DNA of 64,000 bases. It comes from Eledone cirrhosa. Its lineage: Eukaryota. Location: positions 48,856,001 through 48,920,000 of the forward strand of contig OZ024742.1 in NCBI GenBank assembly GCA_964016885.1. The letters run 5' to 3'. The translations under genes and the position numbers were made by a program. A model generated the notes under the pieces. That model ran no database searches and was not told where the DNA came from. It saw only the letters and a list, made by a program, of their open reading frames with translations. This document shows, piece by piece, positions 19,287 to 35,555 of the stretch (its first letter is position 1; every line of letters begins with the position of its first letter).

Positions 19287-19475
19287 ATAGGAAAAAGTAT
19301 GACCCCGACGGCAGAGCTCAAGCCGTTTTGACGGCTATTTCAGAAATAGCCGTCGAAACGGCTTGAGCTCTGCCCTCGGGGTCATACGTTTTCCTATTTC
19401 CCACTCTACTACCCTAAGTATTCAGTACTCTGCTGCGTTATGGTCCATCTGGTTCCTTACCACAATTCCTTTGTT
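19287..19475 (+). mobile_element. Short hairpin-plus-tail element in (TA)n, family 1
   Basis: ~55-bp arms centred on 19342 (GACGGCTATTTC-A-GAAATAGCCGTC-GAAAC), then a tail CCCACTCTACTACCCTAAGTATTCAGTAC...CCTTACCACAATTCCTT; homologous to 30467, 33671 and 35361. Confidence 0.85.
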
Positions 19476-19920
19476 TATATATATATATATATATATATAT
19501 ATATATATATATATATATATATATATATATATATATATATTCCAGATCAAAAAGAATGGATGCCAAAACTGTACAGACCAATGGACCAATAAAGTTTTTT
19601 GTTTTTTTTTCTGAAATATATATCGATATGACATCAATACACTAAATTGTGAACAACAGGAGAAGAAAACGTTTTGTAAAAAGAAGTAAGAGAAAGATAT
19701 TTCCTTCACCAGATAATTTCTATATATCTTATCACAATCCCTCAACAATAATCAATCATTTCACTTTTCTCCCTCTTATTCTTTCTACACAATTCTGTCT
19801 TTGCATCATTTCGTTTCAACACTTCGATGTCATGTCAAGCAATTTATGTTATTAATAACTAATCTTTTACACAATCTAAACTCACCCGGGAAATAGTCTG
19901 CAGAATGTATACTTCGTTCA

Positions 19921-20134
19921 ATATATATATATATATATATATATATATATATATATATATATATATATATATATATATAGAGAGAGAGAGAGAGAGAGAG
20001 AGAGAGAGAGAGAGAGAGAGAGAGAGAGAGAGAGAGAGATATAGACAGATAGATAGATAGATAGATAGATAGATAGATAGATAGATAGATAGATAGATAG
20101 ATAGATAGATAGATAGATAGATAGATAGATAGAT
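19921..20134. repeat. Compound microsatellite (TA)n(GA)n(GATA)n
   Basis: Directly visible. Confidence 0.97.
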
Positions 20135-21099
20135 AAATTTCTTATATGTGAATGCATGTATTGTAGATTTGTGTGTGATTTTATGTGTATGTATGTCTGT
20201 GTGTGCGAGGCCAACTTAGACGTGCAATAATATCGATTGATACCAAATACAGGAGTCGAAATAACCGACTAAAACTCTTTTCAATGATGTGTCACTAGAT
20301 ACCTTTCCAAAACTAAAACGAGTAAATTTATTCCAAATTCCTGGATTTGGAGTTTATTCCATTAAGATATAATAAGAAATCACACCAGTACCTCCGTCTT
20401 TCGGCATATGAACAGCACGCCGCCAAATGTTCCTAGAAATCAGATGATGTTACACATATAACATTGCTGGGACCTAAACATGTTGATTAGAACTCCTCAT
20501 TGTGGTCAAAATGTTGTTCAGTCTTGAATAGTTTTTAAACTTTAAAACAACAAGGAAATACTCACGTTGAAGTTAAGCTCACATATTAAGTGCACACACA
20601 TTTAAGACAAAGAAGGAAACACGTCATGCTCATTTGTCATGCTGTCACATCATCCTGAAACCACATTTTACTATTTTAGTTTCAACCAAGGTGCAGTGAT
20701 GATTTTGTTAAAAATTCACCTAATCAGCCTCGAATTAAGAAAAACATCAAATGCCATAATTAAGAGAGAATCATTTATAAAAACGCCCCTACCTTCTCAT
20801 ATAATACATATATTAGTGATATAACGGCATGTTCTAAATCTTAGAGCTTCATAGTTTCTATCCTAAACTCCATCCATCTCTCTGATGCGTGTCACTCAGA
20901 CTCTGTCTTACTTACCATTTCCCCGTATCCCGCATTAGTCACTTCATCGAACCCCATCTTTCCCAACTAAAACTCCCTAAAATAGCTCTCCCCACACAGC
21001 TTTTTCTATGCAGATTTCGAGCCATAGGTAATTAAATTTAACATGAACTGTACTAATATCTCAAGCTTCAGATAACCTACATCGCACATGGTCAGCGTC

Positions 21100-22440
21100 T
21101 CCCCTTCTTTGATTAACGTTCATGTAACAAATTGATTATTGAAGGTATCAGGAAAAGAAACAAAAATCTGATTATGGCATGGATTGACAACATAAACAAC
21201 TTTACGACATTCCACATTTCTTCTTATTGAAAGCAGTGTACATAGATAAATTTGTATTAATCCTCTAGCAGCATATCAACCACATTGTTTGAAAACAGAA
21301 AACATCAATAACACTACAAAATAAATACGTGTTAAGATACTGTCCAAATAAGAAGATTTATTATTCTACGAGATTTCCTATTCAAAGTATGTCTGTCTAG
21401 CGCTAATTCCATCAACACATGTGTTAAATCAAATAACTTGTGGTTAAATTTGACGTGGACAAAGTATAAGCTCTCCCTTCCATATAGAGGGTTTAAACTA
21501 TATAACAGAGGCAACAACTAACTGAAATACCTACTGAAATACATACAAAGATTGCACAATTATATAACAACGAGTGCGGGGTTAAAAAAATTAGTGAAAT
21601 ATATTCTAAAACAGGCTATCTAATAAAACTTCAAAGGCGAGAATTAAAATAGAACCATTCATACAAGTAGTTATAAGTATATGAAACTGAGGAGATGTGA
21701 AATGAAGGGGAGATTTCAAAACTAGAATGACAGAAGATTCAAACTAATATTGAAAGATCACTCAATTCCATAAATACGGTTATAGATATAGATGCAGTTA
21801 ACATAATCACTATCATCTACGAAAGCTTCAATACAATACGGTAAGTGTTAAGGGAACTAAAGAGAGTAGATAGAACAACTATGGAAGCTATTCATTATAT
21901 TCTGAACACGTCACCCTAAAGCTAATGATATAGATATTTATTTATAATACACATTTGACAACACACACAACTGAATACAAAGAGAGAACCAACTATTACA
22001 GAGTAACCTTCGTATGTCTGGAATAATACTAATGAAGTAAACAAAAAATGACTGATTAGTTAGTGTAATAGAGCAGCATAACAATCTAAGCAAAAACGAA
22101 AATAAGCTTATGTATGACTACGTTATAAACTAGAAACTACAATTTAATTACATAGAGGGTAACAATTTAGATAAAATCAAAACAACAGATGAGATGAAAA
22201 AATATTAAATTGAAACAGCACTCCAAAAACATAAGGAAAATATAAAGAAAAATCTATTTACAGTCAGTATCCTACTGAGTATGTAGGTCAAAGCAGTGTG
22301 CAATACTTTGAGTAAATATTGAAATGCAAATTATGATGTTAACTGTCAATATCCTTGATTATTCACTGAAAATACCCATCAAAATGAAATTATGAAACCA
22401 TAGGCTCACTTCAATAAGATACGCAACATAATACTAGTAA
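21100..22440 (+). pseudogene. Heavily degraded R4/Dong-type RT relic
   Basis: Remnant motifs KLIIEGIRKRNKNLIMAWID (~21130-21190), a YKYM-like block (~21673), DAVNIITI (~21790) and ELKRVDRTTMEA (~21855), colinear with elements A and B; many stops. Confidence 0.65.
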
Positions 22441-22747
22441 TAATTGACAAGTAATAATTAACCATATGAAACCACCGTGAAAAACCTTAAATGTTTTATA
22501 TTTGAATTAAAAAATAATACGCCTTCAAACATCTATTACCATCTAACACTCTTCTAAAATATAGACCCTTAACTCTTGATGGGGATAGTAGGGGATTCAC
22601 CTGAAATACATCATGTGTTGGGTATTTTAAACTTGGTGAGACCGATCTGTCTCCGGGTATCCTGACAGGCTATATTTTCCAGAGAACGAGAAGAAGAGCG
22701 ACAGATTAAGATTTAACCCTAGTACTGAGCTGATACTTTATTATAAT

Positions 22748-22930
22748 TGTTTCTACTTTTGGCACAAGGCCATCAATTATCCCAGTGCATTACTGGTACT
22801 TTATTTTATCGACCTCGTAAGGATGAAAGGCAAAGTCAACCTCGGCGGGATTTGAACTCAGATCGTAAAGGGACGTAACTATGCTGGAAAGCATGGTGTC
22901 TGACCCTCTACCGATACTGCCAATCCACCG
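22748..22930 (-). mobile_element. tRNA-derived SINE, apparently identical to the copy at 3991-4172
   Basis: I found no difference by eye over 182 bp. Confidence 0.92.
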
Positions 22931-33350: not shown

Positions 33351-33670
33351 AAAGATAGCATATAAAAACACGCGGGATAGAAGCGAACAGAAATCACGGA
33401 AGACACGAACAAAAGGACGATTTCTGTTCATCGTCTCTATTCTGTGGATCATTATTCGAATGCATTAAAACACGACAATTCACCACATTGCATCAATACC
33501 TATTCTCGGATAGCTATTCGTGAAAAACACATTGGAGGAAGGAAAAAAAACATTAAGAAATATATATATATATATATATATATATATATATATATATATA
33601 TATATATATATATATATATATATATATATATATATATATATATATATATATATATATATATATATATATA

Positions 33671-33864
33671 AATAAGGAAATGTGGTAAGGAACCAGGTGG
33701 ACCATAACGCACCAAAGTACTCAATACTTAGGGTAGTAGAGTGGGTAATAGGAACGAGTAGGACACCGACGGCTGAGCTCAAACCGTTTCGACGGCTAAT
33801 TCTAGTCCAGAATTAGCCGTCGAAACGGCTTCAGCTCAGCCGTCGGGGACCAACTCGTTCCTAT
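33671..33864 (-). mobile_element. Family 1 hairpin-plus-tail element in (TA)n
   Basis: Tail AAGGAAATGTGGTAAGG...AGAGTGGGTA, then hairpin ATAGGAACGAG...GTTTCGACGGCTAATTCT-AGTCC-AGAATTAGCCGTCGAAAC...CTCGTTCCTAT. Confidence 0.88.
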
Positions 33865-34570
33865 ATATATATATATATGTATATATATATATATATATGT
33901 ATGTATATTTTGTAAGTATATTTTTTATATATATATTTATACATATATATATATATATATATATATATATATATATATATATATATATATATATATATAT
34001 ATAAATGTATGTGTGTATATATGTATTTAGTTATTGATATATGTGTATATGTGTATATGTATATATGTGTATGTGTATGTGTGTATATATATATGTGTAT
34101 GTATATATATATGTGTGTATATATATATGTATGTGTGTGTGTGTATATATATATATATATATATGTATATGTGTATATATATATATGTATATGTATAGTT
34201 GTATTTATGTGCGTGTGTATGTGTATGTATATGTATATATATGTGTGTATGTGTTTATATATATATACATATATATATATATATGTGTATATATATATAT
34301 GTATATGTGTTTGTATGTATATATATATGTGTGTGTATATATATATATATATATATATATATGTATGTGTGTGAATGTGTTTATGTATATATATATATAT
34401 ATATGTAGGTATGTATGTATACATATATGTGTGCATGTGTGTGTATATATATACATATGTATATGTATGTATGTATATGTGTATGTATTTGTATATATAT
34501 ATATATATATATATATATATATATATATATATATATATATATATATATATATGTATATATGTATATATAT
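33865..34570. repeat. Long degenerate (TA)/(TG) microsatellite field
   Basis: Directly visible. Confidence 0.95.
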
Positions 34571-34819
34571 ATGGAAAAGAATGAAACGAAATTTCATTTC
34601 TCACTCTTAGTACGGCTAATATCTAAATATAAGTATGTATACGACGTACATATATATATACACACATATATATATGTTCGTATGGGTTTACAGAACATTT
34701 ATCATATATACATACTACTGTGCGTCTCTACGCATATATGTATGTACGTATACATACTTATATTTAAGTATTAGCCGTACTAAGAGTGAGAAATGAAATT
34801 TCGTTTCATTCTTTTCCAT
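34571..34819. repeat. Inverted repeat with ~75-bp arms and ~100-bp spacer
   Basis: ATGGAAAAGAATGAAACGAAATTTCATTTCTCACTCTTAGTACGGCTAATA and its reverse complement ending at 34819. Confidence 0.9.
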
Positions 34820-35360
34820 TTAGCGTTTTCGGTATGCCCGGCCGACTAACTCACTTGATATGCAAATTAGGCTGCTCAGCCGTTAATATGCATAAGGAAG
34901 GTATATACTTTCAGTGGTTCAATCATCTGACAGAAAGGTATACGATGGTGACGATAGCTAATAAGCTTGAGTCTAGTACATCGTTCCTGTGTCAGTGTTG
35001 AATAAAAGGGCGACGTTGGTTTCTGAGCACTGTACGGCGTAATTCTGGCTGTTTGTTTACAAACAAACCGAACATTATAATAAATGTTCGGTAAACCCAT
35101 ACGTACTTATATATATATATCTGTGCATGTAGGTATATATATACATACTTCTGTGCGTCTGTCCACATATATGTATGTACGTTTACATACTTATATTTAT
35201 GTATATATACAGTATATATGTATGTATGTATATATGTACATGTGTATATGTGTATGTATGTGTGTATATGTGTATATATAAGTATATATATATATATATA
35301 TATATATATATATATATATATATATATATATATATATATATATATATATATATATATATA

Positions 35361-35555
35361 AAACGAAGGAAATGTGGTAAGGAAACAGGTGGACCATAAC
35401 GCACCAAAGTACTCAATACTTAGGGTAGTAGAGTAGGTAATAGGAACAAGTAAGACCCCAACGGCTGAGCTCAAGCCGTTTCGACGGCTAATTCTGGACA
35501 TAATTAGCCGTCGAAACGGCTTGAGCTCAGCCGTCGGGGTCTTACTTGTTCCTAT
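35361..35555 (-). mobile_element. Family 1 hairpin-plus-tail element in (TA)n
   Basis: Same structure as 33671-33864; arms ATAGGAACAAGTAAGACCCC.../...GGGGTCTTACTTGTTCCTAT. Confidence 0.88.

Follow-up and report, generated by a model that had tools for sequence, protein, structure and literature searches.

Short hairpins between (TA)n tracts in Eledone cirrhosa as predicted end insertions of a Hydra-clade Penelope element

An inverted end, a one-sided tail and a (TA)n target have already been published for Penelope-like elements (PLEs) (PMC8557442, PMC3846280), and a role of the PLE hammerhead ribozyme has been proposed without in vivo evidence (PMC4209133). Here, four hairpin copies of this architecture are described from a 64,000-nt stretch of the Eledone cirrhosa genome (GCA_964016885.1, contig OZ024742.1, positions 48,856,001 to 48,920,000, forward strand; hereafter the window), together with the parent element to which they can almost certainly be traced. 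The preferred reading, for which the probability is estimated at about two thirds, is that of an abundant Hydra-clade Penelope for which both strands of a cut (TA)n target would copy one RNA to its 5′ end and then be joined head to head.

[quoted passage not shown] Penelope of D. virilis, Pen2a of Adineta and the Naiads share head-to-head inverted ends, a tail at one end, partial tandems and a pseudo-long terminal repeat (pLTR) promoter with an initiator-like motif (PMC3846280, PMC8557442, PMC2377424). Their tail measures 30–40 nt, compared with 81 nt in the present element, most insertions of which are minimal. The inverted ends of Penelope have tentatively been explained by self-priming (PMC3846280), which is contradicted by the data presented below.

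The anole Poseidon protein PAc, a predicted dimer, cuts and extends both target strands, and two internal start sites bound the tail (PMC11167929). The in vitro behaviour of PAc is similar to the present case with respect to the two internal start sites of the reverse transcriptase (RT), the AT-rich target and the extension of both strands. However, PAc showed no strand preference between its sites, whereas 48 of 49 insertions here use one of each, and no RNA ends were reported at the ribozyme cut, whereas one class of insertions here ends at the cut position (PMC11167929). Animal non-LTR retrozymes are likewise PLE-derived, with a type I hammerhead and a proposed circular template (10.64898/2026.07.22.740005). 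The present hairpins differ from them in containing only one half of the ribozyme, in lacking a tandem arrangement and in giving no indication that they propagate themselves.

In twin priming of L1, the second target strand primes on the same RNA, which results in an inversion; the second primer lies far upstream, and mostly other sequence is copied. In contrast, both sites of the present element are fixed, 81 nt apart, and the two arms duplicate each other.

Parent element and the four copies in the window

The parent was found by a search for the hammerhead 5′ core in front of the hairpin stem, which led to the genomic copy L055 and its relatives. They contain a complete type I hammerhead, in which stem I and the core are followed by stem II, whose loop measures about 35 nt, then by GAAA, stem III, GUC and stem I; the tail of the hairpins comes next. 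Upstream of the hammerhead, copy L083 carries about 950 bp of untranslated region (UTR) and a broken RT/GIY-YIG ORF, while L179 contains an intact ORF of 719 amino acids (aa) with RT and GIY-YIG in a 3.5-kb unit arranged as ribozyme, tail, leader, ORF, UTR and ribozyme. The start of the ORF was found at 309 places in the genome. A pLTR partial tandem, an inverted 5′ copy and a one-sided tail are also present (L179, L178, L038 and the arrays described below), and any target-site duplication would be masked by the (TA)n flanks.

For the 719-aa protein, 2,054 homologues were obtained at E ≤ 1e-20 among 7,996 scored, most of them unnamed and about 40% identical. A single-sequence model reached a predicted local distance difference test (pLDDT) score of 32, and an alignment-based model was used instead (pLDDT 93.5); the best fold match of the latter was telomerase RT (TERT, E 2e-8). 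A Pfam scan of this ORF returned no family, and a VIY...YIG motif was read from the sequence. The Hydra-clade motif DKT and, as a variant of RWK, RWR were present in the translation P0001 (compared with PMC8557442). By eye, the CxCx5C linker reads CNCPDRSIC, CxxC reads CNLC and CxH reads CKH, both close to the end of the endonuclease (EN) domain, with no CCHH in the parent ORF. The Penelope origin claimed in an earlier note on this DNA thus holds. The longer parent that it had suggested looking for also exists, has the 5′ core upstream of stem II and contains an RT/GIY-YIG ORF.

Hammerhead residues are numbered in the customary way. Among 83 complete ribozyme regions, U3-A8 was found in 65, C3/A8 in 11, C3-G8 in 4 and other combinations in 3, and U3-A8 is a described variant of the PLE hammerhead (PMC4209133). 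In predicted folds, the young parent formed stems I–III, and the best fold of L055 was without stem III. Compared with published Hydra elements, which are mostly below 3 kb, the parent has a 3.5-kb unit with a UTR of about 1.2 kb, RWR in place of RWK, a long loop II, a full stem III and a mostly U3-A8 core (PMC8557442). The N-terminus of Hydra-1_Obim is visibly alike (by eye), but its listed ribozyme differs from that of the parent and a 19-nt core motif was not found in the supplement text of the same paper, both of which indicate a different family (PMC8557442). The motifs of the parent fit the Hydra clade, and the hairpins are with near certainty end insertions of a Hydra-clade Penelope.

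All four copies reported in the earlier note were recovered at the same places and on the same strands, each between (TA)n tracts, and BLASTN of the window yielded exactly these four. Folding of the three intact copies agreed with the asymmetric hairpin and unpaired tail described there, with folding energies from −103 to −118 kcal/mol for a single hairpin that measures about 55 bp and is accompanied by a tail of about 80 nt, and the inverted arm was again seen to stop at TTCC|TAT. Positions are numbered from the first base (A) of the stem II 3′ strand, which is 0; the proximal site P is at +51 and the distal site D at +132.

Copy 1 (19287..19475, + strand) is a minimal head-to-head insertion of an older subfamily, the right arm of which matches the long copies L055, L116 and L117. 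Its inverted arm (19287..19341, −) runs from P at TTCC|TAT back to −1, and its forward arm (19341..19394, +) is the 3′ half of the hammerhead, with the stem II 3′ strand, GAAA, stem III, the cut triplet (mutated in this copy) and the stem I 3′ strand. The 81-nt tail between P and D occupies 19395..19475 (+) and is adjoined by a (TA)n target tract at 19476..19540. Copy 2 (30467..30567, +) consists of the tail alone joined to an inverted arm whose end falls at the position of the ribozyme cut, +34 or up to +36 given a 2-nt overlap. This copy had been regarded as collapsed, which is not required; other genomic copies have the same form, with a cut-position arm and a tail-only arm.

Copy 3 (33670..33864, −) has a tail-less arm reaching −8 (1-nt overlap) and a tail-bearing arm reaching −2; of the two, the arm without the tail is therefore longer. 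In copy 4 (35361..35555, −), the tail-less arm extends to 0 and the tail-bearing arm to −6, with two extra bases at the joint. The (TA)n tracts at these three copies lie at 30427-30469, 33560-33674, 33862 onwards, 35192-35360 and 35553-35647. An Rfam scan of 17000-38000 at E ≤ 5 gave no hammerhead and only chance matches of microRNA (miRNA) type.

In the genome as a whole (3.0 Gb, microsatellite-rich, 1,796 contigs), an exact pattern across the hairpin centre detected at least 11,263 short hairpins, while the reversed control gave 0, so the family is not a product of chance. A local density of 18 clusters per 254 kb extrapolates, roughly, to the order of 200,000 related copies. The tail marker of the youngest subfamily occurred at 5,892 places. 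Copies of this subfamily have identical arms and different centres; the hairpins are therefore not a self-copying mini-element but the shortest head-to-head insertions of the Penelope parent, which does not support the non-autonomous elements inferred in the earlier note. They are without the 5′ core of the ribozyme and the upstream promoter region, and they do not form the tandem units with a complete hammerhead each that define non-LTR retrozymes.

Arms were compared in a set of 143 hairpins, enriched for best matches to copy 4 and for the youngest subfamily, from which 18 were removed by an ungapped filter (leaving 125) and 8 more by the end parse (leaving 117). For L246, L192 and L274, the parse was off by a few bases. 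Partner arms of one copy differed at 1.7 positions per 49 nt, compared with 4.2 for arms of different copies (n = 125), so arms were nearer to their own partner. The substitutions previously taken as copy-specific are subfamily markers that are present in long parent copies as well, which favours distinct subfamilies, one of two explanations offered at the time. The other, arm-to-arm conversion, is rare, since rare variants were found 158 times on one arm and 9 times on both, 6 of the 9 stemming from one misparsed copy. As read from the arms, the co-variation is inherited from the source subfamily and is not due to conversion.

Several other origins were rejected. An origin as a miniature inverted-repeat transposable element (MITE) or another DNA transposon with terminal inverted repeats does not fit the asymmetric ends, the differing centres and the retroelement parent, and a HUH/Helitron origin and a parvovirus-like loop flip-flop were both dropped once the parent and the variable joints had been found. 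A core-like match recurring in L057, L061, L065, L076 and L079 was the antisense of an unrelated long interspersed nuclear element (LINE) ORF. At L058:1440-1600, a palindrome with the 5′ half of a sister-family hammerhead was observed, the mirror of the usual form, and further long palindromes and minimal hammerheads of other Penelope-like families were present in L083 (~8640-9350), L075 and L093.

Ends of the insertions and the proposed mechanism

The RNA runs on past the tail into the leader, so P and D are both internal sites. Each is followed by TAT. Of the tail-less P ends, 255 of 265 lead into (TA)n, and of the non-leader D ends, 332 of 338 do so, in agreement with the (TA)n targeting and TAT joins proposed earlier. 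One P end was combined with one D end in 48 of 49 core hairpins, the remaining one having two tails. Moreover, P also terminates copies lacking a partner arm (L048, L055, L083), which makes it a priming site in its own right. An independent short-read run reproduced the same loose ends, with depth confined to about −7..+132 and a step near −7; no strand-change joints were recovered from contigs in that run. By eye, the segment CTCTAC...GTATTGAG of the parent tail (+51..+100) resembles the 3′ end of a coral Hydra consensus, the entry preceding Hydra-1_Obim in the supplement (PMC8557442), and might reflect the conservation of an RNA element where priming starts.

Inner ends (n = 234) showed peaks at −7, −6, −3 and −1, with 41 ends at −7 compared to 8 at −8. 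The overlap at the joints was 0–2 nt in 69 of 117 copies, and the others carried short, often re-copied inserts. The same inner stop was observed where arms meet (TA)n directly, with no inversion (1,480 raw matches, counting overlapping rows), and in direct tandems. Among young tail arms that reach this zone, 50 of 59 stopped at −11..−1, compared with 0 of 23 full-length traversals (p 2e-13), and all five short ORF-internal pieces reaching it stopped at −10..+8.

Promoters in the pLTR are known in Penelope (PMC2377424, PMC3846280). In the families compared here, an initiator-like motif in loop II is kept in sister families whose loop sequences differ. Position −7 is the A of this motif, about 30 nt after a TATA-like box. 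Together with the counts of ends given above, these positions suggest that the inner stop is probably the RNA 5′ end, reached by run-off at the transcription start site, rather than a stall.

A second class of ends lies at +34, the base after GUC and hence the predicted hammerhead cut position (+33/+34). Counts from pattern matches, here and below, cover the first 50–100 places (chromosomes C1–C3) and were scored by eye. Of 281 matches, the first 50 included 40 in which both arms ended at +34 ± 1, with added bases in 23 of the 50 and blunt joints in 13; the corresponding value for two other subfamilies was 32 of the first 50 of 163. A single tail was present in 29 of 30 fetched copies of this class. 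In the young set of 65 two-arm copies, +34 was found on both arms in 3 and on one arm only in 0 (L246 hand-corrected; p ~2e-5).

Mixed joints gave 24 matches, 12 of them at +34 ± 1, compared to roughly 1,000 expected for independent arms. In this set, the tail arm was the short one in 17 of 24 and its partner in 4, which is the bias predicted for a D copy that lags behind. No clear piece with its 3′ end at the cut was seen among 313 arms. The coupling of the arms makes twin priming, mostly on one RNA, quite likely, and the ends at +34 lean towards ribozyme cutting in vivo. In L024, L147 and L244, two or three marker sites assign one arm to a different subfamily from the other, which suggests two RNAs in a minority of events.

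The insertions form a continuum from short hairpins to 14 kb. Four arrays consist of 3–4.5 seamless units, 99.8–100% alike within and 98.4–99.7% between arrays, and none of the 23 full-length traversals ended at −7. Taken together, seamless arrays and the lack of full-length copies ending at −7 suit a circular template, as proposed in PMC4209133, and an RNA circle in this role would be an even bet.

Further repeat structures were observed. At L387 (G000:C1, ~91.489-91.491 Mb), a 55-bp piece of the endonuclease region is repeated in tandem at least 33 times at the 5′ end of a four-unit array, and the joint of L248 has four re-copies of a 12-nt arm end; either iterative telomerase-like re-copying or later DNA amplification could have produced them. 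In L405:1479-3716, a unit of about 299 bp that contains the ribozyme but lacks an ORF is repeated seven times in tandem, the first unit starting at −8; this is a retrozyme-like derivative of the family and resembles the animal non-LTR retrozymes.

From the parent, the complete hammerhead, the P and D ends, the single tail, the fresh joints and the clustered inner ends, all of which were observed, we infer five steps. The pLTR promoter would start transcription at about −7, inside hammerhead loop II, so that the RNA carries P and D near its 5′ end. P would be primed by one strand of the cut and D by the other, and the copy from D would follow behind through strand displacement. Both copies would stop at the RNA end, at −7..−1 on start-site RNA and at +34 on ribozyme-cut RNA, and the two 3′ ends would then be connected either as a blunt joint or through template jumping that adds a few bases. 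Long and multi-unit insertions would arise from RNA continuing past −7 or +34, probably a circle closed at the cut site.

Certain observations weigh against this twin-priming scheme. The inner ends form four peaks and not one, the cap signature is weak (the base before −7 was G in 12, C in 6 and A in 5 cases, among 82 different joints to (TA)n), the same stop could result if processivity is lower shortly after initiation, and both the start site and the cut are read here from genomic DNA. Position +34 is two bases before stem III, so an RT stall could mimic the cut, and the +34 class was not rarer in a subfamily whose parents often have the C3/A8 core mismatch. In anole RNA-seq, no reads started or ended at the cut site, and cutting was dispensable in vitro (PMC11167929). 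The few copies with arms of mixed subfamily mean that the use of one RNA is not universal, and it is possible that the arrays came from tandem source loci or DNA amplification.

Hairpin tips are also lost through 6-nt microhomology, as seen in a control window with 963 matches for 29 of the first 50, while collapse at a comparable CG was seen in 2 of 50. Some short forms, including the 13 of 50 blunt +34 joints, may accordingly be later deletions; the 23 of 50 with added bases are not easily explained in this way.

Alternative explanations

The strongest alternative, although still unlikely, retains twin priming and takes the inner ends as RT stalls at RNA structure, namely the base of stem III for +34 and the stem II and loop II helices for −1..−7, so that no cutting is needed. 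It accommodates the multi-peak spectrum of ends, stem III beginning at +32 and the helix predicted in loop II, and a halted leading RT would block the trailing one and thereby couple the ends. A subfamily with a shorter stem III also has fewer +34 joints (5 of 17 listed), and the lack of cut reads in the anole points the same way (PMC11167929). In contrast, none of the 23 full-length traversals stopped in the zone and the arrays cross it 3–4 times, while the short ORF-internal pieces stopped there in five of five cases. Furthermore, the ends fall at +34 and not at +33, and −7 lies inside the predicted helix rather than at its base.

Self-priming, proposed in PMC3846280 and also in the earlier note, has a single cDNA folding back, copying itself as far as TTCCTAT and rejoining the target. 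Identical arms and coupled inner ends would follow from it. As the product of a fold-back at stem II would keep the whole loop II of the parent, this product was searched for as a pattern; genome-wide, one match was obtained, which was unrelated to the parent loop, with a pattern that misses one variant of an older subfamily. The claimed fold-back at stem II was thus not borne out.

Fold-back of a strand primed at the tail end also needs a longer tail arm. Of 94 young tail matches, 29 were without an inverted arm within 160 nt; in the other 65, the tail-less arm was longer in 29, shorter in 23 and equal in 13, and self-priming of a tail-bearing cDNA is consequently not the general route it was claimed to be. 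In several long copies the tail-less arm was longer by 0.4–14 kb, in two arrays it measured 10–14 kb, and L183, L227, L250, L260 and L263 have a long tail-less arm with no matching stretch on the tail side. Spacer-free palindromes, blunt joints and the termination of partnerless copies at P likewise disagree with self-priming. The 23 copies with a longer tail arm are compatible with it, and an estimated 560 or so copies joined at a 6-nt inverted microhomology could be true fold-backs. As the main route, self-priming is refuted, and its overall probability is very low.

Later loss of the centres from long inverted insertions has still less in its favour as the source of the short hairpins. A microhomology-joined class does exist, and palindromes are unstable. 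However, the same cluster of ends was found in non-inverted arms at (TA)n and in direct tandems, bases were added at joints, and the youngest copies are already short.

Least probable of all, a non-autonomous, MITE-like master copied whole and kept alike in its arms by conversion would suit the high copy number, the constant length of about 190 bp and the fixed ends, but is refuted by the diversity of joints, young copies with identical arms differing in their centres, and it also conflicts with the continuum up to 14 kb, the 158 one-arm against 9 both-arm variants and the missing 5′ core and promoter region of the short copies.

Other elements in the window and implications for the family

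A near-perfect hairpin unrelated to the four copies was observed at 51640-51888, with arms of about 120 bp. It lies between (TA)n tracts, has a tail of about 30 nt on one side, and showed no sign of a hammerhead core. It is likely the same kind of product from another family. Another family is represented at 50200-51640 (−) by a Hydra-like RT/GIY-YIG ORF that is broken, shares 36% identity with the parent over 205 aa and has an asparagine-rich insert in the linker. Broken non-LTR retrotransposons lie at 1346-4878 (+), 6412-9978 (+), 11847-13815 (−) and 58106-61624 (−), with RVT_1 in three ORFs and a weak endonuclease match in one. Tandem repeats of 140–141 bp were present at 448-863 (3 copies) and 54246-54518 (2 copies).

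Elements of this kind, and their architecture, are already known, and the useful part of the analysis is statistical. Thousands of near-identical copies separate the models from one another, and exact positions (−7, +34, +51 and +132) are available together with an intact ORF. Stubs of this type are easily misfiled as MITEs or miRNA-like hairpins. In the literature covered, which lay outside Repbase, Dfam, subscription journals and bioRxiv supplements, no paper derives Penelope inverted ends from twin priming, and none reads ribozyme cuts from insertion ends.

A broader proposal, put forward tentatively and at less than even confidence, is that the promoter starts within the hammerhead and that cutting takes place in the germ line; linear RNA would then give only abortive, twin-primed hairpins with their ends at the start site or the cut, and productive, longer-than-unit insertions would need a circle closed at the cut. 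If this were true, a single mechanism would explain inverted ends, tails and pseudo-LTRs, and the genome of E. cirrhosa would represent a fossil map of the Penelope life cycle.

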